Shown piece after piece: positions 1,780 through 35,984 of a stretch of DNA of 35,984 bases; within the stretch, counting starts at the first letter, position 1; every line of letters begins with the position of its first letter. This DNA comes from a phage. The notes beneath the pieces were generated by a model that ran no database searches, was not told the DNA's origin, and saw only the letters and a list, made by a program, of their open reading frames with translations. Position numbers and translations under genes: made by a program. Location: sequence record PX516787.1; one strand, written 5' to 3'.

Positions 1780-2024
1780 TGCGTGTTTTAGCCTTGTACG
1801 ACAAACAACAAATGGAACTTTACCAGGCGGCTGGAGATATTCCGGCCACAGAACTGGCGGTGTCTGCAATTGAGATGCACGCCTCGGCATTATTTGGAAG
1901 TGATTATCAGGGCGATATTACCTATGAAGGTGCCCTGAAAGCACTAAAGGAATCGAAAGATTTCGCAGTAACACAATCTATCCTGTCCGACCTGGACATT
2001 GACTCTCACATTATTGAAATTTAA
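1779..2024 (+). CDS. hypothetical small acidic protein
   Basis: 81-aa ORF whose ATG overlaps the polymerase stop (TAATG). No recognisable motif. Confidence 0.4.
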   Translation: MRVLALYDKQQMELYQAAGDIPATELAVSAIEMHASALFGSDYQGDITYEGALKALKESKDFAVTQSILSDLDIDSHIIEI

Positions 2025-2035
2025 AGGTACTCAAA

Positions 2036-2899
2036 ATGGCATTTGCTGCTCCTACCCTGGCCTCGAACAAGACTCCTTCTGCTGCACCATTACTGGAAGC
2101 GGGTGGTTATCCTGCTCGTGTTTGCCGTATTATCGACCTGGGCTTACAGCCTGGTTCTGCTAAATATCCTACTCCGTCTCTGAAACTTCTGGTTACTTTC
2201 GAACTGCTCGATGAGTACATGAAAGAAGTTGACAGTGAAGGTAAAATGGTCATGGTTCAAGACCCAGACGAAGATGACGGCATCATGATGGCGAAGAATC
2301 TTGAAGACAAGCCACGTTGGTTTGACTTTGAGTTTACCTATAATGCTGACGGCTTCATGGGTGAGAACTCCCACATCTACAAATTCGCTAAGGCGATTGA
2401 TGCACTGGAAGTTAAACCTAATCTGGAACAAGGCATTCAGGGCCATCCTGCCAAGAACCTGCCAGACTGGTTGGGCGAACCTCTGATTGTTGGCATTGTT
2501 CAATATACCAAGCAGTCAGGCAAGAATGCTGGCCAGGTTGCGAACAAAGTTGCTACCTTCTCCCCGATGAAGTCTAAGGAGAAGAAAGAGGCTAAAGCTC
2601 TGGTTAACCCGACTGTCTTCTTCGACATGTCTGAGCCGGACCTGGAAGTATTCAACAAACTGCCAGGTGGCGAATCCCCGTATGCAATCAAGAACCGTAT
2701 CACTTCTGGTGTTGATTTCTACAAGACTAAGCTGTCTGCACTGTTAGGCGGTAAACCTGCTGATGAAGGTACTGTACCTAATCAGGCTTCTGATGAAGAA
2801 GTTGATGCAGCCATGAAAGCTGAACTGGAAGCACAGGCTGCTGCAAAAGCACAGCGTGAAGCCGAAGGTGGTGCAAGCACGTCTGCTATGCCGTTCTAA
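2036..2899 (+). CDS. putative single-stranded DNA-binding protein (gp2.5-like)
   Basis: 287 aa, sits between the polymerase and the exonuclease. Acidic C-terminal tail (DEEVDAAMKAELE) ending in ...MPF, reminiscent of the acidic Phe-terminated tails of phage and bacterial SSBs. AAAGG Shine-Dalgarno 8 nt upstream. The call is positional and compositional only. Confidence 0.45.
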   Translation: MAFAAPTLASNKTPSAAPLLEAGGYPARVCRIIDLGLQPGSAKYPTPSLKLLVTFELLDEYMKEVDSEGKMVMVQDPDEDDGIMMAKNLEDKPRWFDFEFTYNADGFMGENSHIYKFAKAIDALEVKPNLEQGIQGHPAKNLPDWLGEPLIVGIVQYTKQSGKNAGQVANKVATFSPMKSKEKKEAKALVNPTVFFDMSEPDLEVFNKLPGGESPYAIKNRITSGVDFYKTKLSALLGGKPADEGTVPNQASDEEVDAAMKAELEAQAAAKAQREAEGGASTSAMPF

Positions 2900-7022: not shown

Positions 7023-9041
7023 ATGTCAAAGACTGATGACCTCGGACCGGAGTTTAATGATACAGTAGCCTCGTATCTTGCCAAGCACTACGGTGACGTA
7101 TTAAAAGTCTCAAGAGAAAGATTCTGTATTCTATCTTTGCCATTGCTCCGTCGATATATTTCAGAAAATACTGCAATAGTTGACAGCTATGAAGAACAAA
7201 TTCAAGCAGAGTTAGAAGGCCAGGGTCTTGAAAACGATGCTGTATTGCGTTCCGTTTTCAGAGCACAACTTGAGCGTCTTCGCTCTGGCGACAAGAAAGA
7301 CTCGACTGCCTATGCAGATGAGTTGAAGAAAGGTATTCAAGCAGGTGTTACTGACCGTGTTGCAGGTTCCACATTAGAGGAGCCAAACTCGGAGCATGAT
7401 AACACCGACGAACTTGTAGACAAGATTCTGCATGACCCACACAATGTGGACCCAACTGTAATCCCTGCCAAGGTTGCAGAACGTGTTCGCAAAATCTTGA
7501 TGAAAAGTTTCGAAGCCTTTGGTAAATGGCAGTTCCATATTCAGATGGGATTTCCATTTCAAGCACAGGACTTTCACGATGTAATATTCAGTGTTGGTCA
7601 AAAGGTTGTTGATGGCGAGATTGACCGCTTAATAGTGACCATTCCTCCACGACACTCTAAGACTCAGCTCATGAGTATTGCATTGCCCTTGTATTCATTT
7701 TGCCACAATGAATCAAGCCATAACATTATCACTTCGTATGCAGAAGACGTTGTTCTTGAATCGAGTGGTTACATCCGTGCTGTAATGATGGACCCACTGT
7801 TCCAACGCATATTCCCGAAGGTGAGAATCGACCCCAACAAACGTTCTCTTGAACGCTGGGGTACAACCAAAGCTGGAGTTATGCACGCAGTGCCTACTGG
7901 TGGTAAGCTAACTGGTAAAGGTGCTGGACTTCTTGTTGCAAAATACTCCGGCTGTTTCGTGGTGGATGACGTTATCAAGCCGAAAGATGCCTACTCTGAC
8001 ACAGTTCGAGCAGAAATCAACGACCGATTTGATAACACCTTCATGTCACGTCTCGCCAACGATGGTTGCATAACTGATTCGTACGGAAACCAAATTAAGT
8101 GTGCCCGTACACCAATGGTTATCATCATGCAGCGAGTTCATGACCAGGATTTAGTTGGTTATATACTCCGTGGTGGCTCTTCTGATAAATACCATTATCT
8201 CAATATCCCAGCGATTATTGAGAAAGGTGTCGGAAGTGCTGAATGGTATGATAAGTTAATCAAGAAGCAGAACTACACTCATGCTATTCCCATTCTGTAT
8301 AATTTGAACAGGAAGGAAGAGAAGTCTGCATTATGGCCTTCACGTAAGAGCTTAGAATCTCTGGAGGCAATGAAAGAGTCTAACCCATACACATACAATT
8401 CACAGTATGCTGGCGACCCATCTGCACAAGGCCATGGCCTTATCAAAGAAGATTGGTGGCAAGAGTATGAGCCAGACGTTTTCGACAGAAGTCGCATAGT
8501 CAGAAGTTTTATTACAGCGGATACGGCATCAACTGCCAAATCCTATTCTGATTATTCGGTCCTTAAGCATTGGGGCGTGACTAAAGAGCGTGACGTTTAT
8601 TGTTTAGATATTATGCTCGGTAAGTTTGAAACTCCAGAACTCAAGACTGCTATCATCGACTTCTGGAACAAATGCAACAAGTTGGACTTGAAATGCGTAG
8701 GTTGTATTCCTCGTGCATTGTACATGGAAGACAAGTCTGCCGGACAATTCTTGAACCAACAATTTATCAGAGATGGGAGTGTCCGAGTTTTACCATTGCC
8801 TCGTGATGGGATTAATGGTAATGACAAGGTAACTCGATTCCTTAACGCAATCCCATATTTCTCGCAAAAGAGAATATTCTTCCCTGCTGGTCATGAACAC
8901 ATTGACCACGTTAGACGTGAAATACTTGGATTCACTTCTTTGGGTAGTGGTACTGGACACGACGATTGTGTCGATAACGTTTCAGATATGGTTGCAATCG
9001 AATTCTCAGGCCCAAGTGCCAACTACTCCGCATGGATGTAA
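7023..9041 (+). CDS. terminase large subunit, with a long N-terminal extension
   Basis: Walker A-like PPRHSKTQ in the ATPase region; nuclease-domain motifs ITADTAS and GHDDCVDNVSDMVA. The listed ORF starts at GTG 6996; ATG 7023 (MSKTDD...) is preferred. The Walker A lies about 200 aa from the N-terminus. Confidence 0.8.
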   Translation: MSKTDDLGPEFNDTVASYLAKHYGDVLKVSRERFCILSLPLLRRYISENTAIVDSYEEQIQAELEGQGLENDAVLRSVFRAQLERLRSGDKKDSTAYADELKKGIQAGVTDRVAGSTLEEPNSEHDNTDELVDKILHDPHNVDPTVIPAKVAERVRKILMKSFEAFGKWQFHIQMGFPFQAQDFHDVIFSVGQKVVDGEIDRLIVTIPPRHSKTQLMSIALPLYSFCHNESSHNIITSYAEDVVLESSGYIRAVMMDPLFQRIFPKVRIDPNKRSLERWGTTKAGVMHAVPTGGKLTGKGAGLLVAKYSGCFVVDDVIKPKDAYSDTVRAEINDRFDNTFMSRLANDGCITDSYGNQIKCARTPMVIIMQRVHDQDLVGYILRGGSSDKYHYLNIPAIIEKGVGSAEWYDKLIKKQNYTHAIPILYNLNRKEEKSALWPSRKSLESLEAMKESNPYTYNSQYAGDPSAQGHGLIKEDWWQEYEPDVFDRSRIVRSFITADTASTAKSYSDYSVLKHWGVTKERDVYCLDIMLGKFETPELKTAIIDFWNKCNKLDLKCVGCIPRALYMEDKSAGQFLNQQFIRDGSVRVLPLPRDGINGNDKVTRFLNAIPYFSQKRIFFPAGHEHIDHVRREILGFTSLGSGTGHDDCVDNVSDMVAIEFSGPSANYSAWM

Positions 9042-9256
9042 ATATGGCGGTTATCACTCGTTTAGATGCCCGCTCACGCAAGAACAACTCCTTCCAGATT
9101 CAAGATTTGGAAGGAAACATTTTGTGTGTGATTGAGGCAGTTTCTACCACAGAGAGCGACTGTGTTAAGTTAAAGCACGAGTCAAATCTGCGACTCCACA
9201 CCTCCGACAACATTCAAATTGTTAAGGGTAATGGAACTATTCTAAGGAAGAAATAA
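9032..9256 (+). CDS. hypothetical small protein
   Basis: 74-aa ORF overlapping the terminase stop by 10 nt and ending at the portal start. No motif. Confidence 0.35.
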   Translation: MDVNMAVITRLDARSRKNNSFQIQDLEGNILCVIEAVSTTESDCVKLKHESNLRLHTSDNIQIVKGNGTILRKK

Positions 9257-10572
9257 TGACTTCCAAGAAGAAAAACAATCTTTCTGTTAAAGTTGCAGAT
9301 GGGTTAGAAAACCTTGTAACGGGGTTGGGCGGTCAGGCAGATAAGTCCACTTTTAACCAGTGGACTTTCTCAAACAAGAACGCGAACTATCGCGAACTTA
9401 TGAACCGCTTCCGTGAGGATTGGGTTGCACAGAAAGTGTGCACCGTCATTCCTCAAGACATGACGCGCAAGTGGCGACATATTGATAGTGAAGAAGGACG
9501 CAAAGCGGATAAGAAACTTCGTATTCGTAAGCTGTTCCGTGAGGCATATCAATGGGCCAGATTGTATGGTACTTCATTTGTTCTGCTCGACCTGAAAGGT
9601 ACGGGCAAACTTGATACACCATTGCGACTGGATAACTTGAAGACTGGATGTATTAAATCCATGAGAGTTATTGACCGCTCACGCTTATTTGCCGCAGGGA
9701 CTATGGTTCTGGACCCTTTGAGTCCTCACTATGGTTTGCCAGAGTATTATACTTTGGCTGGGTATCCCGGCTATATCCACTACACTCGTTTCCTTCGGTT
9801 CGAGGGTACTGAACTACCGCTGTTCGAATTCCAACGCAACATGTGGTATTCCGATTCGGTACTTATTCCACTGCTGAAAACGATTGACCAATTCTACACA
9901 ACTGCTGCCGCTGCCGCCAGCCTCGCCCAAGAAGCCACCATTGATGTGGTAACTGTCGAAGGCTTACAATCTTTGCTTACATCACCGGAAGGTGAAGCTG
10001 CTGTGATGAAGCGCTTCAAACTTATGAAGCTGGCAAAGAGTATTTATAATGTCTTAATTCTCGACAATACTGAGAAGTATGACACCAAGTCAATTGCACT
10101 ATCTGGTGTGAAAGACTTGATTTGGGAATACTTGAAGATAGTTGCTGCCGCAGTTGGTATTCCGGCTACACGTTTCCTTTCTGCATCTCCAGACGGTATG
10201 AATGCTACGGGCGAATCTGACCTCGTAAACTATATCGACTTGTTGACAGGCTTGCAGACTTCTGTGTTCGACCCTCGTTTAGATGTGGTAGACAAGATTG
10301 TCCAAGCGCACTTTGGCATTGAAGAGTATAGCTACGAATGGCTAGACATCTTCCCTGAATCCAACGTTGAGAAAGCGAAGCGAGCTAAAGATTTGGCATT
10401 TGCTGTTGACCTGCTGGTTAACAACGGTACTATTACTACCGAAGTTGCAAACGAAGTCATGTTCCATTCGGGCGTGTTCGGAACTTGTGACCTTGGCAAG
10501 CCAAATCCTAATCCTCCTAACATCCAAAAGGGTAACGCAAGTGAAGCAAAGCCAAAACCTGGTTCAGCTTAA
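9256..10572 (+). CDS. putative portal protein
   Basis: 438 aa, immediately downstream of the large terminase and upstream of the scaffold and capsid genes. AAGGA 7 nt upstream of the ATG. Call is by position and size. Confidence 0.55.
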   Translation: MTSKKKNNLSVKVADGLENLVTGLGGQADKSTFNQWTFSNKNANYRELMNRFREDWVAQKVCTVIPQDMTRKWRHIDSEEGRKADKKLRIRKLFREAYQWARLYGTSFVLLDLKGTGKLDTPLRLDNLKTGCIKSMRVIDRSRLFAAGTMVLDPLSPHYGLPEYYTLAGYPGYIHYTRFLRFEGTELPLFEFQRNMWYSDSVLIPLLKTIDQFYTTAAAAASLAQEATIDVVTVEGLQSLLTSPEGEAAVMKRFKLMKLAKSIYNVLILDNTEKYDTKSIALSGVKDLIWEYLKIVAAAVGIPATRFLSASPDGMNATGESDLVNYIDLLTGLQTSVFDPRLDVVDKIVQAHFGIEEYSYEWLDIFPESNVEKAKRAKDLAFAVDLLVNNGTITTEVANEVMFHSGVFGTCDLGKPNPNPPNIQKGNASEAKPKPGSA

Positions 10573-14683: not shown

Positions 14684-15198
14684 TGGATATTCGACTCGAA
14701 GAACTACAATCCATGAAGGAGATTGTAGATGTGTGTGTAGGTATTCCGAAGTTTACCTACAACATGCAAATTAATGCTCCCAGACCTCATGGCGAGTATG
14801 CCGCAATCAAATGTCTATCAAGCACCAATCCGGGCTTTGACGAAAACAGAATAGTAACCATTAACGGTGAAGAGATGTTTCGTACCCGTGGCGTGCGCAT
14901 CCTGACGTTTGCAATAATGTTTTCTCGTGAGGGTGATGAATTTATCAAGTTTGATAATTCGTTTTACCGTCCCGATGTTCAAGCCAAATTGAAGCAGGAG
15001 AGGTTTGCTGCTCTTGGTAAAGAACCTTTAAATCTTGCCACCATACAAATGGAAACCAATTGGGAAGTTCGCCAAGCGGTTAAAATGCAATTCAATATTA
15101 TACGTGAAGATTTGAGTCCTATTGGGGTCATGTCTGGCGCATATGTTGGTGGCAACTTCTATGATGGTAATTCACTCATCACAACCAAAAAGGTTTAA
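14680..15198 (+). CDS. hypothetical neck / tail terminator protein
   Basis: 172-aa ORF with a GTGATG stop-start overlap, directly upstream of the sheath gene. Confidence 0.4.
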   Translation: MMDIRLEELQSMKEIVDVCVGIPKFTYNMQINAPRPHGEYAAIKCLSSTNPGFDENRIVTINGEEMFRTRGVRILTFAIMFSREGDEFIKFDNSFYRPDVQAKLKQERFAALGKEPLNLATIQMETNWEVRQAVKMQFNIIREDLSPIGVMSGAYVGGNFYDGNSLITTKKV

Positions 15199-17588: not shown

Positions 17589-17764
17589 CTGAAAAGTTCC
17601 CGGAAATAAAATACTTCTTGCACCGTCCTGTAATAGAGGACAGTTCACTCTGTTCTCTTAAAGAGTTACAAGATGGGACCTACTCTATTATGGATTTGTT
17701 GACCTTCCACGCAATACTTGATTTGCGTAACGAATTAAAACCTAAAGAAGAAGACAATGGCTAA
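17130..17764 (+). CDS. tail assembly chaperone, -1 frameshift long form (lambda G-T / P2 E+E' analogue)
   Basis: The -1 frame is open from 17486 to the TAA at 17762-17764 and spans the entire apparent 170-nt gap before the next gene. The heptamer T_TTT_TTC sits at 17486-17492 in the zero frame. Confidence 0.6.
17486..17492 (+). promoter_or_regulatory. -1 programmed ribosomal frameshift slippery heptamer T_TTT_TTC
   Basis: Classic X_XXY_YYZ site; the -1 frame has a stop at 17483-17485 and is then open for 93 codons. Confidence 0.6.
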
Positions 17765-20700
17765 TAACATAAAAGATTTGATGAGAATGTCCGAAGCCGA
17801 ATTGATTGGCTTAGGCGCTCAATATGGTCTGTCGTTCAATCCAGGTATGCGCAAACGAGATATGGCACAGCAACTTGAATCAAGTGCTGCATCTGGTTGG
17901 ATGGAAACAAATTCGCAGCTTATGGAAGAAACCCATACAGAAGATGATGGCATCTCTTATGGCACTTCCGACATGATTTCAGATTCAGCCCACATTGCAC
18001 AGATGATTTCTGGCGCTGGGCTGACTGAAACATTCCATGCTGCAATGAACGGTCCAAGTCACCATGTAGAAGCTATCCATGCCTACATGGAGAAATTAGG
18101 TGTATCCGCCGATGATGTGTGGATGCACATGCCCAAAGCAAACCCGAACAAACCGGAAGGTCATTGGGGAATGCTTAATGCGTACATGCGTGATACGCTG
18201 ACAGGTCATCAAGATATAATGCCAGAGCTTCCTGGACATTATTCAGGCGACATTATGGGCGAGTACTCCACAAACCGTGGAGATATTGCCAAGTCGTTCG
18301 GCTATCTTGCCCACATGTATGTTGACCGTGAACAATACGACAACCCAGACCGCTATGCACGAGATGTTTATCGTGTAGCCAAACGTTTAGAATCAGAATT
18401 GCCGCAAAACTTCCGAGAAGTTGCTGCTGTATCTGCAATGAATGTAGGAAATAAGTCGGGGCCAAAACTTTCATACATGGATTCATTGCCTAAACTTGGC
18501 TCTGAATCAATTGTTAGTGGTATCCAACACCCTCGACAGCCACTTAACGCATCTGGTTTACCACTTGGTTCATTTGGCAGCGGTATTAATGCCGAATACT
18601 CATTATCTGCATCCTTATCTGGCTCGCCAGGCTGGTCTGATGTAAGTAGGACTCTGTACCAAGATGTTTCTAGCGTAGTTAAGTCTGCGGCAAAGGTCTA
18701 TTCTGGTGATTCTGAAAGAGGGATGAGTGCACACCGCACTCAATCTTCTGACAGAGATTTGATTCTTGATTCTGCTTCCCGCTATGCAGACATTATAGAT
18801 GTTCGTTCTGGGTATGAGAATCTTAAGAAAGATATTGGCGACGACCCTCGCTACTCTGGTGCATCCATCCGTGGTGTTCTTGAGAATGCTCACCAATATA
18901 ATGAGGCAGAAGTAAGCAAGACATTTGACCCTGCTGAACGCTTAAGAAATACTGAACCTGCCGAACTAAGTCCTTCAACAGAGTTTATTACGCAACTCGA
19001 TTCACCAACGAGTTGGAACTCTGCTCGCGCTCGTCGTGAGAGTATTGCTATATCTAACTTGGACTCTGCTCCACAACCAGCTCCGAAAGAAGGCCCAATC
19101 CATTATCACAACATGGAACAGGGAACTCAGGAATGGTTGGACTTCCGCAAACAATACGACATTACTGGCTCCACTGTTGGTTCGTTTCTTGGTAACAATG
19201 AATACACCCGACCTTGGGCTGCAATGATTGATAAAATTGGCCTACAACGCGGAAAGGGGCCAAGTGAATTTACTAAAAGAATGTTCGAAGCAGGTCATCG
19301 GACGGAAGAAATTGCTCGTAACCGTGTCGCCAAAGAGTTTGGATTCGATATCGAGCAAGCTGGCGCAATAACAAATGACAATTATCCGTCGTTCATGTAT
19401 TCTCCAGATGGCCTTATCGGTGATGACGCGATTTGGGAACACAAGAATCCTGAAAGGGCTAAAAAGTTTTCTAATCTCTCTGCTGGCGAGCATAAGGACT
19501 ATTTCGACCAAATTCAATTTGGCTTGCTTGTATCTGGCCGTAGTCGTGCACTGTTCTCTCAGACAATCAGAGACAAGACGGTATCTGAGTGGATTGAGAA
19601 AGACGAGGGATGGTACGAGCGCAACAAAGATAAGATTGATTCTACTATTGGGCGTCTCAATGCTGGTCGAAAGTTTGTTGAAGATAATCCAGACTTACCT
19701 AATGATGAATTAATCAAGGGTGCTCGTGCTGCAATGACTGGCGATGGCATCTGGAAGGATGTTAAGCAAAGGTCAACTCGTGGATATTCTGCCGCAGCTG
19801 GAACACCTGATGACCCATTCATAGGCAACCGCACTGATGCTGGAATTGGTGAGGCCACGACTTCTGCCGTAGGCTCTGACAGCACGACTGGCAACGACTC
19901 GATGGCAGTATCTGTCAAGAAAGGTATTCTTGCTGCACAGGAAGAAAACAAACTGCGTGGACAAGATGCTGACTTTGGTGGAAATGATGGTCGTGGTGGC
20001 GGTGGTGGCTTCTGGGATACTTTCGATGCCAGCAGTTATGGTATTAGCGGAGGTGGTTCTGGTGGCGGCGGTCGTGGTGGTTGGAGAGTTGGCGGTAGCT
20101 TCTCAGATGACTTCGGTCGTGCTGGTGGGGCATTGGCTGCTGGCGTAGCTGGTGGCAGCATTGGTTCATTATCCAATGGCGCAATGAATGCCCTCATGAT
20201 GACTCCTTGGGGTCGTGTAGCTGGCATGGCTATTGGTGCTGCCCAGATTGGTAATGAAGCTCTGGAAGGTCTGAACGACTTCTACGGCAATTCTTTGGAT
20301 GCTGGTGTTAATAATCCTAACGAATATTCTTCCATGACTCAGGGCATGGAAATGTTGGGACTTAACTCACAACAAGCCAATCGACTCAATCAAACCACAC
20401 ATAGTGCCTATAACACCCTCCTAAATGGCGACCCCAGCGGCGCTGTGAACATCGTTCAGGGAACCCGTGGCCTTATCACAATTGGCGACATTCGTGCGGC
20501 ACAGGGCGACCCTGTGGCCCTAGCGCGGATAATGCGTGAGCGTGGTCAGGAACGGGGTTGGAGTCAGGCCCGTATTGCTGGTGCAATGCAGATGGCTGGT
20601 CTGGACGGTATGGCTCGTGCCTATGACCGCACAGAATACAGCATGGGCGAGGCTGAGGCGAACGTTAAGCGCGGAGCCGACTCAAACTATGCCGAAGGCG

Positions 20701-21428
20701 TTGCACAACTAGGAATCGCGCAGACGGAGCGTGCTGGTGTACTGCCTGGATACGCTGTTCCGCAAGCTGCAATCTCATACGGCAGCACCTTTATTGAGGC
20801 AGGTGGCGATGCCGCTAGAACGATGCGTGTGGCCTCCAACGGTACAGCCGATGCAGCACGTAATGTTTATGACTTTATCGCAGGAGAAGAGTCAGGGAAC
20901 CGTGATTTTAACGCAGATGGTTCGGTAGTTACATCGCCAACTGGTGCTAAAGGTCGTATGCAGGTTCTTGATTCAACTTCTCGTGACCCTGGCTTTGGTG
21001 TTCGTCCTGCCAAAGATAACTCACTTGAAGAACGTGCCCGTGTTGGTCGTGACTATTACGATGCAATGCTTAAGCGATATAATGGTGACGCTGAGAAGGC
21101 TATGGCGGCGTACACAGATGGTGCCGGAACTGTTGATGATGCTATCAACAAACATGGAACCGACTGGCTGAACGCTGTTCCACTACAGGCACAGAACCGT
21201 GTCAAGAAGTACCGCGAATGGGCTTCTCAGGGAGATTCTATTGCAGAAGGTGCAACTGGATTCACCAGAAACGGACTGTCCTATGGTCAGACACAGCCCA
21301 CCATAGTTAACGTTGAAGTCAAAGCTACCGTGAACAACAAACAAGCGTCTGCAACCGTGTCAACTCCGAACGGTCAAACTGTTACCCAAACAATCAACAT
21401 GGGTAATGGTGCAATGGAACGCAGATAA
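17757..21428 (+). CDS. tape-measure-position multidomain protein (1223 aa) with Rho-N-like N-terminus, YqaJ-like nuclease domain, Gly-rich tract and C-terminal lytic transglycosylase domain
   Basis: Lies between the chaperone and baseplate genes. N-terminus DLMRMSEAELIGLGAQYGLSFNPGMRKRDMAQQL resembles the Rho N-terminal helix-hairpin-helix. QGTQEWLDFRKQYDITGS ... SPDGLIGDDAIWEHK (about nt 19100-19470) resembles a YqaJ / lambda-exonuclease PD-(D/E)xK domain. Poly-Gly tract at about 19970-20230. AGEESGNRDF ... GAKGRMQV ... AYTDGAG (about 20860-21180) resembles the SLT lytic transglycosylase motifs. Confidence 0.7.
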   Translation: MANNIKDLMRMSEAELIGLGAQYGLSFNPGMRKRDMAQQLESSAASGWMETNSQLMEETHTEDDGISYGTSDMISDSAHIAQMISGAGLTETFHAAMNGPSHHVEAIHAYMEKLGVSADDVWMHMPKANPNKPEGHWGMLNAYMRDTLTGHQDIMPELPGHYSGDIMGEYSTNRGDIAKSFGYLAHMYVDREQYDNPDRYARDVYRVAKRLESELPQNFREVAAVSAMNVGNKSGPKLSYMDSLPKLGSESIVSGIQHPRQPLNASGLPLGSFGSGINAEYSLSASLSGSPGWSDVSRTLYQDVSSVVKSAAKVYSGDSERGMSAHRTQSSDRDLILDSASRYADIIDVRSGYENLKKDIGDDPRYSGASIRGVLENAHQYNEAEVSKTFDPAERLRNTEPAELSPSTEFITQLDSPTSWNSARARRESIAISNLDSAPQPAPKEGPIHYHNMEQGTQEWLDFRKQYDITGSTVGSFLGNNEYTRPWAAMIDKIGLQRGKGPSEFTKRMFEAGHRTEEIARNRVAKEFGFDIEQAGAITNDNYPSFMYSPDGLIGDDAIWEHKNPERAKKFSNLSAGEHKDYFDQIQFGLLVSGRSRALFSQTIRDKTVSEWIEKDEGWYERNKDKIDSTIGRLNAGRKFVEDNPDLPNDELIKGARAAMTGDGIWKDVKQRSTRGYSAAAGTPDDPFIGNRTDAGIGEATTSAVGSDSTTGNDSMAVSVKKGILAAQEENKLRGQDADFGGNDGRGGGGGFWDTFDASSYGISGGGSGGGGRGGWRVGGSFSDDFGRAGGALAAGVAGGSIGSLSNGAMNALMMTPWGRVAGMAIGAAQIGNEALEGLNDFYGNSLDAGVNNPNEYSSMTQGMEMLGLNSQQANRLNQTTHSAYNTLLNGDPSGAVNIVQGTRGLITIGDIRAAQGDPVALARIMRERGQERGWSQARIAGAMQMAGLDGMARAYDRTEYSMGEAEANVKRGADSNYAEGVAQLGIAQTERAGVLPGYAVPQAAISYGSTFIEAGGDAARTMRVASNGTADAARNVYDFIAGEESGNRDFNADGSVVTSPTGAKGRMQVLDSTSRDPGFGVRPAKDNSLEERARVGRDYYDAMLKRYNGDAEKAMAAYTDGAGTVDDAINKHGTDWLNAVPLQAQNRVKKYREWASQGDSIAEGATGFTRNGLSYGQTQPTIVNVEVKATVNNKQASATVSTPNGQTVTQTINMGNGAMERR

Positions 21429-29373: not shown

Positions 29374-30726
29374 ATGGCTAAAGGTTGGTCATTTGGCGGC
29401 TTAATTGCCGCCTTAAAGTCTGCTGCATTCTTAAATGCAGGTACTGCTCGTGGTGAAGTAATCACTGTTGGACAAAAGAATGCCCAGATTCCAACCACAG
29501 CATTTGTAACAAACTTCAATTTCAATACATACACATTCACCAATGGTGAAGTTCTATATGTTGAGATGAACTCTGCTGTAAACGTTCCACCAGAGTTACA
29601 GAAGTGGGACCTTGGGAAGTTCAGTGGTGCATATGTAATTATAACTGTGCTTGGAATTTCTGATAACAGCAATGCCTCCATCCTCGTAACACATGGTGAG
29701 GCAGCACGACCTCCAATCATGTACTACTCTCGCGGACCGTCTGGTAGCAGGTCGTACACAGCGCAACCCCTAATGTCTTGCAAGGATGCCGGAAGCGCGA
29801 ACATTAACCTGTTTACAGGTGCGTCAGATGTTGGTGTTTATTATCAAGAGTCTGATGCTGTTGCTGGTTCTGCTGGTGGCTATCCAGCAGCACATGCTGG
29901 CACACTGGAAGTTTTGCCAACTGCATATGGTGTACAGCAACGCTATACATCCATATATGGTAACGTTTGGGTTCGTAGTCGTACGCTTGATTCCTCGCAG
30001 AATTGGGCTGATTGGAGGGAGCTTGCACGAGTAAATCAGCGCGACCGCATCACAGAAGTTGGTGCAATGGAGTTGTATAACGATATTCCATACATCGACT
30101 TCCACTATGCAAACTCTGGTTTAGACTACACTGCACGTATTATCGCAGAAGGATACAATCAGTTAGCTTTACGTGGAACTGGTCAAGACTTCAAGCTGTT
30201 CCTGAGTGGGCAGTATCGCGGTATCACTTGGGGCCGTGGTTGGGGCCAAGAGACAGATGGGCACGTCCCTTATGGAGTGTACAACTGTGAAGTTGGTCCA
30301 GATGCCTGGGTCCCAATCTTGACGCTACAAACTGTAACAACTGGTCAAGGGTATGGAACTCATATTTCGTTTGGTGCATATAGCAGAAATAATGATTTCT
30401 CAAGTCCTGTAATCTCCAGACGTGGTGATAATGGTGCCGTACACAACTGGACATTCCAGAATGACGGCAACATCGACTACACTGGCAATGGTGGTCCTTT
30501 CCGATTTGCACGAGAGAATTGGGCAAACGCTTCTTTCATAAGAGACATTCGCCTGGCCTCCTACCAAGAGTCTACCACATGGCATGGCTATGGATATCGA
30601 GATGAATCTGGTTGGGTAATCACCGCTGTAATCAACCAAACTGCTGACGAACTTATAGACTATATTGGTCGTCGCAGATTGCAGAAATATGTGAATGGAG
30701 CATGGTATGACTGCTATTCTACGTAA
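29374..30726 (+). CDS. tail fibre / receptor-binding protein
   Basis: 450 aa, third consecutive fibre-like ORF, with the TAAGGTAA SD-like motif upstream. Confidence 0.5.
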   Translation: MAKGWSFGGLIAALKSAAFLNAGTARGEVITVGQKNAQIPTTAFVTNFNFNTYTFTNGEVLYVEMNSAVNVPPELQKWDLGKFSGAYVIITVLGISDNSNASILVTHGEAARPPIMYYSRGPSGSRSYTAQPLMSCKDAGSANINLFTGASDVGVYYQESDAVAGSAGGYPAAHAGTLEVLPTAYGVQQRYTSIYGNVWVRSRTLDSSQNWADWRELARVNQRDRITEVGAMELYNDIPYIDFHYANSGLDYTARIIAEGYNQLALRGTGQDFKLFLSGQYRGITWGRGWGQETDGHVPYGVYNCEVGPDAWVPILTLQTVTTGQGYGTHISFGAYSRNNDFSSPVISRRGDNGAVHNWTFQNDGNIDYTGNGGPFRFARENWANASFIRDIRLASYQESTTWHGYGYRDESGWVITAVINQTADELIDYIGRRRLQKYVNGAWYDCYST

Positions 30727-31237
30727 CTATAAAGGGTTTGTTGAGAATACAAACCTGACTGAAAAACAACAAGTGCTCAAGGACGAGCACAAGATTCTCT
30801 TCGGTTGTGACGAGAATGGAACATGTTGGTATAAAATTCGTGATTCTTTAAAGGACGGTACAGCCAAAGTTGTGTACGAAAATGATGGGACTATTCGACA
30901 CATTGACTTTGGTCCTGGTGATACTGTGGCCACACCGCTGGGTGGGAACATAGTTGAGCTGGAGTCGCTGCCAGAGGGTGTTGAAGAAAACAGACACTTT
31001 TGGAAGTTTGATGGTGAGAAGTTTGTCGAGCATAAAGAAAACCGTGTGAAATACAACGAGTTTATGCGTAAGAAGAAACTTGCACCATTGACGGAAGAAA
31101 TTGGCATTCTCACTGACATGGTTGAGCTTGGCATGGCCAAGAAGTCTGACAACGAACTGCTTATTAAACTCAAGAAGAAGCGTATCAAACTGTCTCAACT
31201 CGACCTAACCGAAACAATCGACTGGAATGAATTCTAA
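30695..31237 (+). CDS. hypothetical protein (possible tail fibre assembly factor)
   Basis: 180 aa, follows the fibre genes; an alternative ATG at 30707 is in frame. Positional guess only. Confidence 0.35.
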   Translation: MEHGMTAILRNYKGFVENTNLTEKQQVLKDEHKILFGCDENGTCWYKIRDSLKDGTAKVVYENDGTIRHIDFGPGDTVATPLGGNIVELESLPEGVEENRHFWKFDGEKFVEHKENRVKYNEFMRKKKLAPLTEEIGILTDMVELGMAKKSDNELLIKLKKKRIKLSQLDLTETIDWNEF

Positions 31238-31578
31238 TGGATAGACAAACTTTCCAGATGATTTGGGAAGCAATGCACCAATACGGCGTTTGGCATGGAC
31301 TGTTGGCTGGACTGACAGCCTTAATCCGTGGTGCATATGAGAGTGAGGGTTTAAGCAAAGCGTTGCTGGATGCGACGCTATGCAGCTTAATCGGCCTGTT
31401 TGCATTTCAGGTCGCAGGTACATTTGAAACTTTCACAACTAACGTTACTATGCAGTTGGTGTTAGCTATTGTGATTGGTGTCATTGGTGCCAACCTCATT
31501 ATCACAACTGTCAGAGAAAGTTTCTCTGGCGCAATCAAACAACTTAATCCTTTGACGTGGTTCAAGAAGGCACGATGA
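31237..31578 (+). CDS. putative holin (three hydrophobic segments)
   Basis: 113 aa with three hydrophobic stretches (GLLAGLTALIRGAY, LCSLIGLFAFQVAG, MQLVLAIVIGVIGANLIITTV), immediately upstream of the endolysin. Confidence 0.5.
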   Translation: MDRQTFQMIWEAMHQYGVWHGLLAGLTALIRGAYESEGLSKALLDATLCSLIGLFAFQVAGTFETFTTNVTMQLVLAIVIGVIGANLIITTVRESFSGAIKQLNPLTWFKKAR

Positions 31579-31595
31579 AATGGTAAGGAACCCGA

Positions 31596-32150
31596 ATGTT
31601 ATCATTCAAAGTCCTTGCACTTCTGACAGCTTTAGTTCACATCAACGCCCCAGCTTCGGTTGGGGCAGTGAATTCTGCTATTACAGATTTTGCAAGTCAC
31701 TCTTATTTAAATGGAAGTCTGAAACTATCTTCTTCACAACGCAAAGAGCTAGAATGCTACACTAAAGTTATCTGGTATGAAGCTCGCGGAGAAGACAAAC
31801 ATGGAAAGATTCTGGTAGCTAATGTCGTCCGTAATAGAACTAAGTTCGGGAAGCCATTCGCTAACACCGTTTGTGATGTTGTCTATCAACGCAACCAATT
31901 TGCATGGACACGAGAAGCAAAGAAGAAGAATGCTCAATGGAAGCATGTAGCAAAGGTTAATTATGCCACAGAACAACAACAAGTTCTGGACACTATTAAC
32001 GTTGCAATCTCTTTTGTATTATTTAATCAACCCTCTGTCACCAAAGCAACCCACTTTTGTACAGCATCGGAGAAGTGCAACTTCAAGAATGTTAAAGGTT
32101 TGGGACGTTATGGTGGCCATAAATTCTATGAGTATCTAGGAAATCTGTAA
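31596..32150 (+). CDS. endolysin, SleB-type cell wall hydrolase with N-terminal signal peptide / signal-anchor
   Basis: N-terminus [24 protein letters not shown] looks like a signal peptide; [22 protein letters not shown] ... [11 protein letters not shown] matches the SleB (Hydrolase_2) core. AAGGA 5 nt upstream of the ATG. Confidence 0.8.
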
Positions 32151-33250
32151 TGGCTTACACTACCTTTTCACAAACCAAGAATAACCAACTATTAGAGCCA
32201 ATGTTCTTTGGTCAGAACGTTAACGTTGCTCGATATGACCAACAGAAGTACAGCATCTTCGAGAAGTTAATCGAGAAGCAGTTATCTTTCTTTTGGCGAC
32301 CTGAGGAGGTTGATGTTAGCCAGGACCGAATTGACTATGCTGGTCTGCCTGAATGCGAGAAGCACATCTTCACAAGCAATTTACGATACCAAATCCTGCT
32401 TGATTCCATTCAGGGACGTGGACCAACTACAGTTTTGCTGCCAATTGTGAGCATTCCTGAGCTGGAAACTTGGATTGAAACTTGGTCATTCTCAGAGACA
32501 ATTCACTCTCGTTCTTACACGCATATTATTCGTAATATCGTGACAGACCCTAGCGTAATTTTCGATGAAATTGTGGAGAATGAGCACATCAAAATGCGTG
32601 CAATCGGCATCTCCCAATATTATGACGAGCTTCAACATCTGACTTCCATGTGGCATCTGCATGAAGATAAAGTTTCTCTTCGTGAGCTTAAGAAGAAGCT
32701 ATATTTATGCCTCATGTCCATCAATGCACTGGAAGCAATCCGCTTCTATGTTAGCTTTGCTTGCTCATTTGCCTTCGCTGAACGTAAGTTAATGGAAGGA
32801 AATGCCAAGATTATTCGCTTAATTGCTCGTGATGAAGCACTCCATTTGACCGGAACTCAACACATGCTGAACCTTCTTGCAAGCGGTGTTGATGACCCAG
32901 AAATGGCAGAAATTGCTAAAGAATGCCGTCAAGAATGCCAACTCATGTTCGAAAATGTGGCCCAACAAGAGAAGGATTGGGCTGATTATTTGTTCAAAGA
33001 TGGCTCAATGATTGGCTTAAACAAGCAAATTCTATGCGGATATGTGGAATATATCACGAATATTCGTATGCAAGCAGTTGGATTGGATGCTCCATTCAAA
33101 GGTGCTACTAACCCGATTCCTTGGATTAACGCATGGTTGAATTCGGATGCTGTACAAGTTGCTCCACAGGAAACGGAGATTAGTTCGTACCTTGTCGGGC
33201 AGATTGACTCCGAAGTGGATACCAATGCCCTGGGCGGATTTGAGCTGTAA
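32150..33250 (+). CDS. nrdB: ribonucleotide reductase class Ia beta subunit
   Basis: Full-length (366 aa), with the di-iron ligand regions ([39 protein letters not shown]). From memory it is near-collinear with enterobacterial NrdB, apart from an apparent internal deletion of about 10 aa near [13 protein letters not shown]. Confidence 0.95.
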
Positions 33251-33398
33251 CGATTATATGTGAGAAGAGATTCGATGCGTTAGCGTCGTTTCTCTTTGAG
33301 CTAGGATAAAACAAGTAAATTAAATATCTATTTATTCCCAATATTGCTACAATATTAAGAGTAATATTAGGAATGCGTAAAGTTAAAACCAAATGATA

Positions 33399-33471
33399 CA
33401 TGGTCGGTCAACTGTACCTGGATAGAAATTCGTTCATGGTCGGTCAGCTGTATCTAGACGAAATTTGTTCG
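33399..33471 (+). repeat. tandem direct repeat, two copies of about 36 nt (CATGGTCGGTCARCTGTAYCT...)
   Basis: Copy 1 at 33399-33434 and copy 2 at 33435-33471, roughly 80% identical, read directly from the sequence. Confidence 0.7.
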
Positions 33472-33493
33472 AATGGAAAACCGACTATTAATA

Positions 33494-33518
33494 TTTTTTT
33501 TTTATAATTTTTTTTTTT
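33494..33518 (+). repeat. two homopolymeric T tracts (10 and 11 T) separated by ATAA
   Basis: T10 at 33494-33503 and T11 at 33508-33518, within an AT-rich segment flanked by AATATT palindromes. Confidence 0.8.
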
Positions 33519-33544
33519 AATTTAAATATTGCTACAGAATTAAT

Positions 33545-33607
33545 GAGACTAGAATTCGTAACAAGCTACGAGACTAGAATTGTTTCAATATTAACGAGAC
33601 TAGAATT
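33545..33607 (+). repeat. three phased direct repeats GAGACTAGAATT (iteron-like or tandem promoter-like array)
   Basis: Exact 12-mers at 33545-33556, 33570-33581 and 33596-33607, spaced 25 and 26 bp apart, each followed by a CAATATT-type element. Confidence 0.8.
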
Positions 33608-33837
33608 GTGGCAATATTATAATTTTTATTTTTGGGCCAACGGGGAGGGGAAGCCCAACGTCCTATCGGACTTAAATACGGTCCCTACTCCAACTTTTTC
33701 CTACAGCCTATCGGCTTTCAAACAACACCAAGTTAGGCGCTTCGCTTATGGGTCAAGGTCAAAGTCTCCGTGCTGTTGTAACAATGGCACAGGTTTGTGA
33801 TATTAGTTGGAAGTGAATTGTGTAATGGCTACGCTAT

Positions 33838-33843
33838 TATAAT
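33838..33843 (+). promoter_or_regulatory. candidate host sigma70 -10 element (TATAAT) upstream of the RNAP gene
   Basis: Perfect TATAAT about 40 nt upstream of the RNAP start codon. No convincing -35 hexamer at 17 +/- 1 bp (TTGTGA at 33794-33799 is too far). Confidence 0.25.
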
Positions 33844-33883
33844 CCGTTTCAGTTAAATCATACACAATCTTGGAGACTTACAA

Positions 33884-35824
33884 ATGACTACTATCACCAC
33901 TCAAACTATCAAATCCGTTGTTCCTGCTATCACTGCTCTGGTATATCGTGCCAAAGAGAAACAGAACTATATGCAGCCTCAGACTTGTGCTATTGCTGCC
34001 TTAGCCATATTCAAGATGATGACGTCTTTCACTCGTGATGACGTTGTTCCTGCCATTGCGATGGTTGAGCTGGCTTCTGCTTCTATTGCTGATGCCAACC
34101 GCTACAACAACGATTTGAAAGCAATGCACTATGTTGACCCAGCTATCAACCTCATTGGTCTGGCTAAACACTTTGGCTTCATCACCATGAACGAAGATAA
34201 GTCATTCCAACAAACTGACACATGGGTTGAACTGGTTACAACCAAAGACACAGCAGTGCCATTCACTGAGCGTGTTACATCTGAATCTCGTCGCAAGCCT
34301 TTCGTTAAAGGTGGCAAAGTTAAGCCATCCAAGACTCTGAAAGCTGCAATCGAATTCCTGCAAGATACTGAGTACCATGTGGAGACTGAGATGGTTCGCA
34401 TCATTCAGTCCATGCTTGAGCAACGTACTTATGGTGGCTTGCAGATGCCAGAAGCAATCCAGACTGAACTCCATGTTTGGAACAATGCTGTAGCAATGAT
34501 GAATCAGGACACACTGTATTCTGACTACTTTGCTGATAACCGTGGCCGTCTGTATCATGTAGCATGTGCTGGCCCTAACCCACAATCCTCTGACTTTGCT
34601 CGTTGCTTGTATTCTCACAATGTTGAGAACATCGTTAAGAAGTTTAACGAAGATGGTTCTACTACCATTGCATACAACATGTTCATGGCAGAGCTGGAAG
34701 ATATTTCTGGTGGTGAATGGTGCAGTGCTAAACGTTTAACTTATGTTGCTCAGAATCCGGCTGGTTCACTTGCTCGCATGATGAACATGCCTAAAGCTGA
34801 ACGTCCTTCCAAGCCATTCACTTATGTTCGTCTGGCTCTGGATTGGTTCAAGTTTGAGACTATAGGTGAATGCGATTCTCGTGTAGGCTTTGGCTTAGAT
34901 GCTAAATGTTCTGGTACTCAATATCTGGCATTCATTGCTGGTAACATGGAAATGGCTCGTGCTACAGGTCTGGTTGATTCTGAGACTAAAGCATCTGACC
35001 CATACCAGTTGAGTCTCCGTGAACTGTTGAAGCTGCTGGACAAGTCTTCAATGAAGCCATCTCCTGAAATCATGGACGAATTCTTGAATCCGAAATCTGG
35101 TCGTAAGTTTATCAAAACTCCGTACATGGCTATTCAATATGGTGGTGGTAAAGCTGCATTAACTGGTTCATCTGACTTTATCTCCTACATGACAGAAGCT
35201 CTCCAGATTCCTATGGAGAAAGCTGAGGCATTTGCTGAACTGTGTGTAGAAGCAATCCATAACGCATTGGGTGCTAAGATTAACATGTTCATTGAGAAAG
35301 CTGCTGAGGCTGCATACAACCGTTGTGTTGAACTTGGCAAAGAGTACATCACATACCGTCACACTGATGGTCAGGTTGTAATGAAGCCTTGCTTCCCATC
35401 TCGTGAAATCTGTGAGGCATTCAGCATTCGTGTTGACAGCCAAACTCGTGTCATCTTTGGTCAGATTCAGGAGAATAAGCCTTGGACCATTCGTGAATCC
35501 AACCCAACTAAAGAAGAATTCAAGCGTACTTTCGTTGTTAACTACATTCAAGGTATTGATGCACTGGTTGCTCGTACTGTTGCAGTTAAAGCTAAAGAAG
35601 CTGGTCTTCGTGGCTTTACTTCAATCCATGATTGTTTCCGTTGCTGTCTGGCAGATGCTCCACGTATGATGGAAGTTATTCGTGCAGCATATGTTGAAAT
35701 CTTTGTAACCAACAATCAATTCGAGAATCTGTCTAAGCAACTTGGTGGCATTCAGATGTATCATGAGAACATCGTAACCGAAGAGCTTCTGATGAGCGAA
35801 CACGCTTACTACTTCTGTCAATAA
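33884..35824 (+). CDS. single-subunit DNA-dependent RNA polymerase (T7-family), compact (646 aa)
   Basis: GLDAKCSGTQYLAF matches T7 motif A (DGSCSGIQHF); RKFIKTPYMAIQYGGG matches motif B (RSVTKRSVMTLAYGSK); FTSIHDCFRC matches motif C (IHDSFG). GGAG 7 nt upstream of the ATG. Confidence 0.85.
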   Translation: MTTITTQTIKSVVPAITALVYRAKEKQNYMQPQTCAIAALAIFKMMTSFTRDDVVPAIAMVELASASIADANRYNNDLKAMHYVDPAINLIGLAKHFGFITMNEDKSFQQTDTWVELVTTKDTAVPFTERVTSESRRKPFVKGGKVKPSKTLKAAIEFLQDTEYHVETEMVRIIQSMLEQRTYGGLQMPEAIQTELHVWNNAVAMMNQDTLYSDYFADNRGRLYHVACAGPNPQSSDFARCLYSHNVENIVKKFNEDGSTTIAYNMFMAELEDISGGEWCSAKRLTYVAQNPAGSLARMMNMPKAERPSKPFTYVRLALDWFKFETIGECDSRVGFGLDAKCSGTQYLAFIAGNMEMARATGLVDSETKASDPYQLSLRELLKLLDKSSMKPSPEIMDEFLNPKSGRKFIKTPYMAIQYGGGKAALTGSSDFISYMTEALQIPMEKAEAFAELCVEAIHNALGAKINMFIEKAAEAAYNRCVELGKEYITYRHTDGQVVMKPCFPSREICEAFSIRVDSQTRVIFGQIQENKPWTIRESNPTKEEFKRTFVVNYIQGIDALVARTVAVKAKEAGLRGFTSIHDCFRCCLADAPRMMEVIRAAYVEIFVTNNQFENLSKQLGGIQMYHENIVTEELLMSEHAYYFCQ

Positions 35825-35888
35825 CAACTAAGCGCCAAGGATGGCATTAGTTGCATGTGAATCTAATAACCAATTTGGAGACTTTATA

Positions 35889-35984
35889 ATGTTTACAGTG
35901 ACCTTAGTAACCTATTACGGCAAGCAAGTTTGTGAGAAGTTTGAGACTTTAGAAGAAGCGAGAGCTTTTGCAGCTCGTGAAGAG
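35889..35984 (+). CDS. hypothetical protein, 3'-truncated by the window edge
   Basis: ATG at 35889 preceded by TTGGAGACTT, the same motif that precedes the RNAP start. The frame is open to the end of the window (MFTVTLVTYYGKQVCEKFETLEEARAFAAREE...). Confidence 0.4.
   Translation, partial: MFTVTLVTYYGKQVCEKFETLEEARAFAAREE

Follow-up and report, generated by a model that had tools for sequence, protein, structure and literature searches.

A probable late lysis cassette with a lambda S-family holin and a putatively exported SleB-type endolysin in a phiEcoM-GJ1-like coliphage

The locus and its gene order

The window, by which we mean the whole 35,984-nt stretch of DNA that was analysed, represents some two thirds of a genome of about 53 kb. 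The closest record is Shigella phage vB_Shi_2KOFFS (Carltongylesvirus, Chaseviridae; 2KOFFS below), whose lysis genes do not differ in substance from those of the window. Alignment to this phage gave 99.96% identity over window positions 1-2313, 99.2% over 10599-33878 and 97.5% over 33870-35984. The first ORF of the window was considered as a primase and ruled out, since the alignment places the window start inside the DNA polymerase gene. The genes and features at the lysis locus are the following.

30695..31237, plus strand: tail-fibre assembly protein, the last structural gene (Pfam Caudo_TAP, E = 2.5e-8; PHROG 136, 2.8e-27)
31237..31578, plus strand: holin, 113 aa, lambda S family (class I; Pfam PF05106, PHROG 126)
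31585..31589, plus strand: Shine-Dalgarno-like AAGGA, 6 nt 5' of the endolysin ATG (direct sequence reading)
31596..32150, plus strand: endolysin, 184 aa, SleB/Hydrolase_2-type (Pfam PF07486, PHROG 938, AlphaFold/Foldseek)
31596..31667, plus strand: predicted N-terminal export signal of the endolysin, residues 1-24 (rule-based analysis)
31788..32129, plus strand: Hydrolase_2 catalytic domain of the endolysin, residues 65-178 (Pfam match)
32150..33250, plus strand: nrdB, ribonucleotide reductase small subunit (Pfam Ribonuc_red_sm, E = 2.3e-48)
33273-33288: terminator-like hairpin 3' of nrdB

A first-pass annotation of this DNA had placed the lysis genes at 31237-32150 with nrdB as the next gene, and two plus-strand ORFs of 113 aa (31237-31578) and 184 aa (31596-32150), followed by nrdB, were found exactly there. 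The tail-fibre assembly gene is translationally coupled to the holin gene, its stop and the holin start sharing a TAATG junction. The nrdB ATG overlaps the endolysin stop by one base in a second TAATG junction. The holin and endolysin genes are adjacent, with 17 nt between the holin stop and the endolysin start.

These genes very probably form the late lysis cassette of a phiEcoM-GJ1-like coliphage, located where the late operon ends, with the tail-fibre assembly gene on one side and nrdB on the other. The same order of tail fibre, (assembly protein), holin, endolysin and nrdB is found in phiEcoM-GJ1 (gp73 holin, gp74 endolysin, gp31 Rz-like spanin) and in further members of Carltongylesvirus, although Mangalitsa, ST32 and Bp10 do not have a tail-fibre assembly gene directly 5' of the holin. 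The holin-endolysin cassette is common to 50 phage records. Among the Carltongylesvirus relatives, the endolysin is 96.7-100% identical at the protein level, and over 2.7 kb the DNA identity is 97.4%. The holin-endolysin pair is already annotated and is ordinary for phiEcoM-GJ1-like coliphages. Our analysis carries little weight as a discovery, because annotations and papers on the genus have already made public the cassette, its SleB-type exported endolysin and the spanins at their distant locus. In the searchable literature, no experiments were found on Carltongylesvirus lysis or on endolysins of the SleB type from phages of Gram-negative hosts, and the genome announcements of Mangalitsa and Myduc do not mention lysis genes.

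The holin and the endolysin

The 113-aa protein matches Pfam PF05106 (Phage_holin_3_1, the lambda S family) with an E-value of 2.1e-8 and 34.9 bits, against a curated cut-off of 23.8, and PHROG 126 (holin/anti-holin) at 2e-18. BLASTP against lambda S gave an E-value of 9e-8, with the LRGxY...LDATxC motif aligned. Its hydropathy profile contains two clear membrane segments, at about residues 42-60 and 74-92; a third, weaker segment at about 16-34 aligns with lambda TMD1. The lambda S105 holin, a class I holin with three membrane helices that makes large holes, belongs to the same Pfam family and is of similar length. The two proteins are 27% identical over 73 residues across TMD1-TMD3, including a conserved Cys in TMD2. 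Unlike S105, the present holin does not have the Met-Lys-Met dual-start motif that yields holin and antiholin: the N-terminal sequence, MDRQTFQM, has its second Met at codon 8, and no Shine-Dalgarno sequence was found 5' of this codon. A dual-start motif is not required for membership of PF05106. The partner endolysins also differ, that of lambda being cytoplasmic and that of the present phage predicted to be exported. The first-pass annotation had offered this protein as a holin or pinholin candidate. The matches to PF05106 and PHROG 126 bear out the holin, whereas the pinholin finds no support from homology, the lambda S family being one of large-hole holins.

The 184-aa protein had been assigned to the SleB/Hydrolase_2 family, in agreement with profile and structure searches. 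It covers the full Hydrolase_2 profile (PF07486, positions 1-100) with an E-value of 1e-15, scores 58.6 bits where 27 is the cut-off, and matches PHROG 938 (endolysin) at 4e-20. When its AlphaFold model (pLDDT 85.4) was compared with the PDB using Foldseek, the top three matches were 4FET_A/B and 4F55, with a probability of 1.00 and target-normalised TM scores of 0.66-0.67. Only SleB catalytic domains match; the next match has an E-value above 1. The YEARGE segment (residues 61-66), just 5' of the Pfam-matched domain, aligns with GESRGE of 4F55 in phmmer. Residues E62, E66, C54 and C93 do not vary across the 62 homologues. We take Glu62 to be the candidate catalytic residue, a choice that follows the assignment reported for SleB. 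The enzyme is probably a lytic transglycosylase. Disulfides between Cys54 and Cys93 and between Cys155 and Cys161 probably form in the periplasm, and co-occurrence of the cysteines was counted in support of these pairs.

The endolysin and Bacillus SleB (4FET, 4F55) share the fold of the catalytic domain and the E-x-R-G-E motif, at 18-21% sequence identity. The endolysin does not have the N-terminal peptidoglycan-binding domain of SleB and, unlike SleB, it has four conserved cysteines and a predicted signal sequence. SleB requires the muramic-delta-lactam of the spore cortex. Substrate recognition by the phage enzyme must differ from that of SleB, because E. coli walls do not contain muramic-delta-lactam.

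A similar arrangement occurs in Vequintavirinae (Pectobacterium phage CB7_83, Cronobacter phage CR3_087), which are also phages of Gram-negative hosts. They encode a Hydrolase_2 protein predicted to carry a signal peptide, with a small membrane protein adjoining it, spanins elsewhere and an additional M15 peptidase (PMC7344957). In these phages, however, the neighbouring protein, of 65 aa and two helices, is a candidate class II holin and not a lambda S homologue (PMC7344957).

Spanin genes and a second wall hydrolase

No spanin had been recognised beside the endolysin gene, and the first-pass annotation had proposed an all-frame search for lipobox ORFs, including genes embedded in the endolysin gene or nrdB. 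We scanned the window in six frames from all ATG, GTG and TTG starts, including the interior of these two genes, and found no credible o-spanin, embedded or otherwise. As a control, the same scan recovered the o-spanin in two relatives (L003 and L005). The sole lipobox match in the window, at 34377-34493, is implausible: it is an ORF of 38 aa within the RNA polymerase gene, and it has Arg at +2 and only 16 residues in its mature part. Blastn and tblastn searches of the window with the spanins of relatives gave no significant match. Small ORFs of the window with membrane-like segments were also considered as an i-spanin or u-spanin and were rejected, since all but the holin lie out of frame inside larger genes.

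Related genomes carry their spanins at a different place. In 2KOFFS, an overlapping Rz/Rz1-like pair, annotated as Rz-like spanin, is located at 427-666 and 590-790, ~5 kb upstream of the left edge of the window. The i-spanin (79 aa, MLDQLKSIFLGVL...) has an N-terminal membrane helix, IFLGVLTALGILLAVFL, that scores -3.5 kcal/mol on the Hessa scale. The o-spanin is a 66-aa lipoprotein, MFRKKCLAVLIAMSIVSC, with the lipobox IVSC and Ser at +2. The two proteins match PHROG Rz-like spanin at 1.8e-18 and 3.8e-18. Both are unusually short, and their genes overlap by about 77 nt. The locus is kept in all 46 of the 46 related phage records (90.9-100% identity), and the Carltongylesvirus relatives, like 2KOFFS, have the pair as a separate locus in the early/middle region. 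In phiEcoM-GJ1, gp31 is named "Rz-like spanin" in RefSeq, and the spanins are listed by Kongari et al. 2018 and SpaninDB as overlapped, at 14724-14961 and 14884-15094 (PMC6139136). The spanins of T4, PseT.3 and PseT.2, are likewise unlinked to the holin and endolysin genes (t and e), but the T4 pair has a separated architecture whereas the pair of the present phage type overlaps (PMC6139136).

Given its 99% identity to 2KOFFS and the 46 relatives, the present phage is expected to carry a spanin pair outside the window. The missing spanin is a puzzle only because the window boundary excludes the distant locus. That a partial window does not contain a gene class does not mean that the whole genome lacks it, and spanin genes often lie apart from those for the holin and endolysin.

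The relatives also encode a second wall hydrolase in the early region, a T5-endolysin-like M15 L-Ala-D-Glu peptidase with a PHROG endolysin match at 1.5e-54. Neither a hydrophobic N-terminus nor an export signal was found in this enzyme in the relatives. A holin beside the M15 gene was sought in one relative (L004) and rejected, the flanking ORFs being soluble. A 119-aa ORF near the M15 gene of the same relative (31624-31983) has a signal-like N-terminus. The published description of SKA49 has this layout too, with the spanin far from the holin and the exported endolysin, and with an M15 enzyme as another endolysin (PMC10282059). According to the same paper, the C-terminal half of the M15 gene is recombinationally variable within the genus (PMC10282059).

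Predicted export of the endolysin and a proposed course of lysis

The N-terminus of the endolysin had been read as signal-like, with an AxA-type site that implies Sec export, and our rule-based analysis points the same way. The n-region has K5 as its one Lys and is followed by a 9-residue hydrophobic core, VLALLTALV, and by two small-x-small sites (APA before S and VGA before V). The candidate signal-peptidase sites are after A20 or A24. By the same rules, the query and all of its 61 full-length homologues (62 of 62 sequences) have this n-h-c architecture, although the sequences are poorly conserved. The hydrophobic core of the 62 N-termini has a median length of 9 residues (range 6-12), and a small-x-small site lies 3-14 residues downstream in all of them. 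The n-region has neither Lys nor Arg in 13 of the 62, which is unusual for efficient Sec signals. The endolysin appears to be Sec-exported, and a cut by signal peptidase I, after Ala20 or Ala24, is in our view more likely than a retained SAR anchor.

If the anchor were retained, the phage would instead use a SAR endolysin with a pinholin: an uncleaved, weakly hydrophobic signal-anchor of 25 uncharged residues would tether the inactive enzyme to the inner membrane, and the small membrane protein would do no more than depolarise this membrane, thereby releasing and activating the enzyme. The curated GenBank annotations of Mangalitsa and DE15 do read "SAR endolysin", and the SKA49 paper uses the wording "putative SAR endolysin ... 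pin-holin" (PMC10282059). From V6 to T30 the protein is uncharged over 25 residues, enough for a membrane span, and the second half of this stretch is rich in Ala, Ser and Gly. The 19-residue Kyte-Doolittle maximum of the N-terminus is 1.64, borderline for a membrane helix, and this measure does not separate a signal peptide from a SAR domain for the endolysin. However, the strongly hydrophobic core spans only 9 residues, with His, Asn and Pro coming after it. In the AlphaFold model, residues 1-19 have pLDDT < 50 and form a helix only at 5-13, then coil, unpacked against the fold. On the Hessa scale, the best N-terminal segment of 17-23 residues comes to +4.0 kcal/mol, compared with -0.2 and +0.15 kcal/mol for the SAR domains of P1 Lyz and R21, suggesting that it is far less membrane-competent. 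The cleaved signal peptides of DsbA and MalE score near 0 on the same scale and overlap with the SAR domains, so the sum parts the endolysin from two SAR domains and does not part SAR domains from all signal peptides. The N-termini of distant homologues are still shorter and plainly signal-peptide-like (MKKFMCLLFLLFSFQSHA followed by NF, ...TQHALA followed by HS). The membrane protein paired with the endolysin is homologous to lambda S and falls outside the pinholin families. There is also a precedent in T4 RI, whose supposed SAR domain proved to be a cleaved signal peptide (PMC8385771). Taken together, we consider a SAR anchor rather unlikely, though still a serious contender.

The identity of the main endolysin can also be read differently. 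The SleB-like protein could be auxiliary, with the early-region M15 peptidase as the main endolysin acting through the S-type holin, a reading compatible with the explanation we prefer. The lack of an export signal in the M15 enzyme of the relatives and its PHROG endolysin match are in keeping with this, as is the large-hole holin family, which suits the need of a cytoplasmic endolysin. Vequintavirinae also pair a signal-peptide SleB-like protein with other wall hydrolases (PMC7344957). However, the SleB-like gene occupies the classic cassette position directly 3' of the holin gene, has its own Shine-Dalgarno-like AAGGA and is kept in all relatives, whereas the M15 gene has early genes as neighbours and a variable C-terminal half (PMC10282059). 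We judge it improbable that M15 is the main endolysin. Far less probable still, to the point of being hardly credible, is a truly spanin-less phage whose outer membrane is breached otherwise, or not actively. Such a class exists, with 91 phage genomes in Kongari et al. that have no identifiable spanin (PMC6139136), and neither a credible lipobox ORF nor a spanin homologue turned up in the 36 kb of the window, even among ORFs nested within the endolysin gene and nrdB. Against this, about a third of the genome, 17-18 kb, lies outside the window, the 99% identical 2KOFFS has its pair ~5 kb upstream of the window start, the locus is present in 46 of 46 relatives, and phiEcoM-GJ1 is counted as spanin-bearing in the same survey (PMC6139136). 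The first-pass annotation was right that no spanin is recognisable in the window. Its suggestion that the phage lacks one is refuted because a pair elsewhere in the genome, which it had itself named as counter-evidence, occurs in 2KOFFS and all 46 relatives; judged from these genomes, the spanin-less reading is already refuted at the genus level.

The explanation that we prefer, and hold as a whole with high confidence, combines a late holin and an exported SleB-type endolysin with distant overlapped spanins and a second, M15 wall hydrolase. We infer the following course. During late expression, the SleB/Hydrolase_2-type enzyme would leave the cytoplasm via Sec, with signal peptidase I cleavage favoured after Ala20 or Ala24. 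In the periplasm it would probably gain the two disulfides, Cys54-Cys93 and Cys155-Cys161. The lambda S-family holin would build up in the inner membrane and control timing by firing at a set time. Its firing would collapse the membrane potential and open holes, thereby unleashing the periplasmic enzyme. The cytoplasmic M15 L-Ala-D-Glu peptidase may also escape through these holes. The overlapped two-component spanin, with a 79-aa i-spanin and a 66-aa o-spanin, would then break the outer membrane.

More tentatively, a fully processed and soluble periplasmic lytic transglycosylase, as opposed to a membrane-tethered SAR enzyme, could be present well before lysis, kept harmless by a mechanism undescribed for Gram-negative phages, and could form a two-endolysin system with the cytoplasmic M15 peptidase let out by the S-type holin; we regard this as possible but doubtful. 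Candidates for the silencing of such a soluble enzyme are a dependence on loss of the membrane potential, disulfide caging and a requirement for a prior cut by M15. A dependence on membrane potential loss has reportedly been proposed for Lys44 of Oenococcus phage fOg44. The means by which a Sec-exported SleB-family enzyme is silenced ahead of holin triggering, like the choice between cleavage and anchoring, is of modest value to lysis specialists and to users of antibacterial endolysins. The same is true of why Carltongylesvirus phages keep two unrelated wall hydrolases.

Holin-independent Sec export with the holin as the timing trigger, as proposed here, would liken the present enzyme to the SAR endolysins P1 Lyz and R21 and to the secreted Lys44. 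These three are lysozymes, whereas the present endolysin belongs to a different catalytic family, and fOg44 has a Gram-positive host, unlike the present coliphage.

Position of the cassette in the phage genome

The lysis cassette belongs to a known group of phages. A DNA search with the 2.7 kb surrounding it matched 50 phage records, mostly of Escherichia and Yersinia phages, and all relatives among the records examined are classified as Carltongylesvirus (Chaseviridae). These are small myoviruses of the phiEcoM-GJ1 type that encode a T7-like RNA polymerase. The closest match to the window is Shigella phage vB_Shi_2KOFFS (PV615261.1; 2KOFFS below), with alignment identities of 99.96% (1-2313), 99.2% (10599-33878) and 97.5% (33870-35984). 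Window position 1 corresponds to position 5689 of the 53,672-bp 2KOFFS record, within the DNA polymerase gene, and the right end lies within the RNA polymerase gene. Based on this alignment, the window covers about two thirds of the genome and lacks the early/middle region.

Both cassette open reading frames (ORFs) lie where the first-pass annotation had placed them, with nrdB next as it had stated. Pfam and PHROG profile searches identified the genes.

Features at the cassette (window coordinates)
30695-31237, tail-fibre assembly protein, directly upstream of the holin
31237-31578, + strand, holin, 113 aa
31596-32150, + strand, endolysin, 184 aa
32150-33250, nrdB, directly downstream of the endolysin
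33273-33288, terminator-like hairpin 3' of nrdB

The tail-fibre assembly/holin and endolysin/nrdB junctions are TAATG overlaps, and the endolysin has an AAGGA of its own 6 bases upstream of its ATG. These junctions, together with the hairpin after nrdB, indicate that the cassette closes a late operon.

Families of the holin and endolysin

The first-pass observation was accurate and its family assignments were right. The endolysin, assigned there to the SleB/Hydrolase_2 family, matches the entire Pfam Hydrolase_2 profile (PF07486; E 1e-15, 58.6 bits, cut-off 27) and also PHROG endolysin families. Its AlphaFold model (mean pLDDT 85.4, built on 24 homologues) matched only the Bacillus SleB catalytic domains 4FET and 4F55 in the PDB (probability 1.00; TM 0.66-0.67, normalised to target); all other matches had E > 1. 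Residues 61-66 (YEARGE) align with GESRGE of 4F55 in phmmer, and Glu62 and Glu66 are invariant among 62 homologues. Because SleB is a lytic transglycosylase, the endolysin likely shares this chemistry. SleB depends on muramic-delta-lactam, and this dependence of the Bacillus enzyme cannot apply to E. coli walls. Transglycosylase endolysins are prevalent in Chaseviridae in a 2025 survey (PMC12596118). Cys54 and Cys93 are invariant in the homologues, while Cys155 and Cys161 are both present in 59 and both absent in the other 3. This pattern of conservation and co-loss suggests two disulfides, which in turn suggest a periplasmic enzyme.

The 113-aa protein had been proposed as a holin or pinholin. 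The holin part is supported by an above-threshold match to the Pfam profile of the lambda S family (Phage_holin_3_1, E 2.1e-8), by one to PHROG holin/anti-holin (2e-18), and by BLASTP against lambda S (E 9e-8, TMD1 to TMD3 aligned). By homology, it would be a large-hole, class I holin of the lambda S type and not a member of a pinholin family. The holin has no Met-Lys-Met dual start; the following Met is at codon 8 and lacks a ribosome-binding site.

Proposed export of the endolysin

The endolysin N-terminus is probably a cleaved signal peptide, judging from its sequence and the model. As the first-pass annotation had noted, it is signal-like with a small-x-small site: a strongly hydrophobic core of only 9 residues is followed by His, Asn, Pro and two such sites, the second just before VNS. 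A SAR domain, an uncleaved and weakly hydrophobic membrane anchor, would fit the 25-residue uncharged stretch in this region and the label "SAR endolysin" in two curated GenBank annotations, but we consider it the less likely reading. All 62 full-length sequences (query and 61 homologues) share the signal-like architecture (median core 9 residues, range 6-12), even though sequence conservation is lowest at the N-terminus, and the most distant homologues have signals of textbook form, for example MKKFMCLLFLLFSFQSHA|NF and MKYFKVLAFVLVLFTQHALA|HS. In the AlphaFold model, the N-terminus is merely a 9-residue helix followed by coil, with pLDDT < 50 and no packing on the domain. The lowest cost of any 17-23-residue segment on the Hessa scale is +4.0 kcal/mol, compared with ~0 for the SAR domains of P1 Lyz and R21 and -0.05 to +5.1 for five cleaved E. 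coli signals. There is a precedent in T4 RI, whose presumed SAR domain is reported to be cleaved (PMC8385771).

Thirteen of the 62 full-length sequences, including P0004, P0007, P0038 and P0050, have no Lys or Arg in the n-region (for instance, MPSAQVLAFLL and MGLFHALVFSL). Efficient Sec signals do not usually have such n-regions, which might reflect deliberately slow export of the endolysin.

Lysis genes outside the window and other features

The first-pass annotation saw no recognisable spanin. This holds within the window: the all-frame lipobox search it had called for (six frames, every ATG/GTG/TTG start) found no credible ORF with signal and lipobox, and detected both positive controls, the o-spanins of phiEcoM-GJ1 and 2KOFFS. 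The spanins of these two phages, used as blastn and tblastn queries, had no match within the window. Window-wide, small ORFs with membrane-like segments other than the holin were rejected as out-of-frame shadows within larger genes. For the genome, however, the claim does not stand, since a spanin pair is found elsewhere in the relatives' genomes.

Spanin genes of 2KOFFS (2KOFFS coordinates)
427-666, first gene, annotated "Rz-like spanin"
626-790 as annotated, 590-790 in a fuller ORF reading, second Rz-like spanin gene, overlapping the first

The first product (MLDQLKS-IFLGVLTALGILLAVFL-KGKSSGKAEERQ...) has an N-terminal membrane helix and a charged helical tail. The second (MFRKKCLAVLIAMSIVSC-SQSG...) carries a lipoprotein signal (lipobox IVSC, Ser at +2), and its mature part of 48 residues contains two further cysteines. 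They match PHROG Rz-like spanins at 1.8e-18 and 3.8e-18. The locus lies ~5 kb to the left of the window start and is present in 46/46 records from a sensitive DNA search (90.9-100% identity). The apparent lack of spanins in a Gram-negative phage arises from the limits of the window. A spanin-containing lysis system is already annotated and described for this group: phiEcoM-GJ1 is listed among phages with overlapped two-component spanins (i-spanin, 78 aa, 14724-14961; o-spanin, 69 aa, 14884-15094; Kongari et al., 2018; PMC6139136), and its gp31 is an "Rz-like spanin" in RefSeq.

Beyond the window, in their early region, the relatives also carry a T5-endolysin-like M15 L-Ala-D-Glu peptidase (PHROG endolysin 1.5e-54; 2KOFFS 48704-49117, which is 32485-32898 in the L004 sequence of that phage; Mangalitsa 8917-9315). 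With this second peptidoglycan hydrolase, Carltongylesvirus has two unrelated candidate endolysins, SleB-type and M15. The M15 peptidase has no export signal and, lacking an N-terminal hydrophobic segment, is presumably cytoplasmic. From there, access to the wall would require holes. In a phage that also encodes such an enzyme, the pairing of a large-hole holin with an exported endolysin is understandable. The same combination of a SleB-like hydrolase with signal peptide and an adjoining small membrane protein occurs in Vequintavirinae (e.g. Pectobacterium phage CB7), likewise with an extra M15 peptidase and spanins encoded elsewhere (PMC7344957). Our literature search found no experimental study of the SleB-type enzyme here or of Carltongylesvirus lysis.

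An unannotated 119-aa early-region ORF of 2KOFFS (L004 31624-31983, outside the window), which precedes the M15 gene by about 500 bp, has a strong signal-peptide-like N-terminus (MKLKYIIIYTLALIVLAFFSFESKA) and is a putative secreted or membrane protein. The nrdB-RNA polymerase intergenic region (window 33250-33884) is non-coding with low GC (0.39), and contains a 24-nt direct repeat (33399-33458) and a motif with the ending ACGAGACTAGAATT that occurs three times at ~26-nt spacing (33528-33607). These elements may represent early promoters in tandem, or repeats associated with the genome ends; in the Mangalitsa record, both the terminal repeat and the early region start shortly before the RNA polymerase gene. 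A 1-kb block (window 20001-21000) has a GC of 0.54, compared with a window average of ~0.45, and strong positive GC skew. It lies within a 1223-aa ORF (17757-21428), the positional counterpart of the Mangalitsa tape-measure gene and a 'virion structural protein' in 2KOFFS. PP952070.1, 'Staphylococcus phage Pel53', labelled a Staphylococcus hyicus phage, has a Carltongylesvirus endolysin (96.7% aa identity) and the spanin locus (90.9% nt identity); its host label is doubtful because a phage of Staphylococcus would then carry a spanin pair of Gram-negative type.
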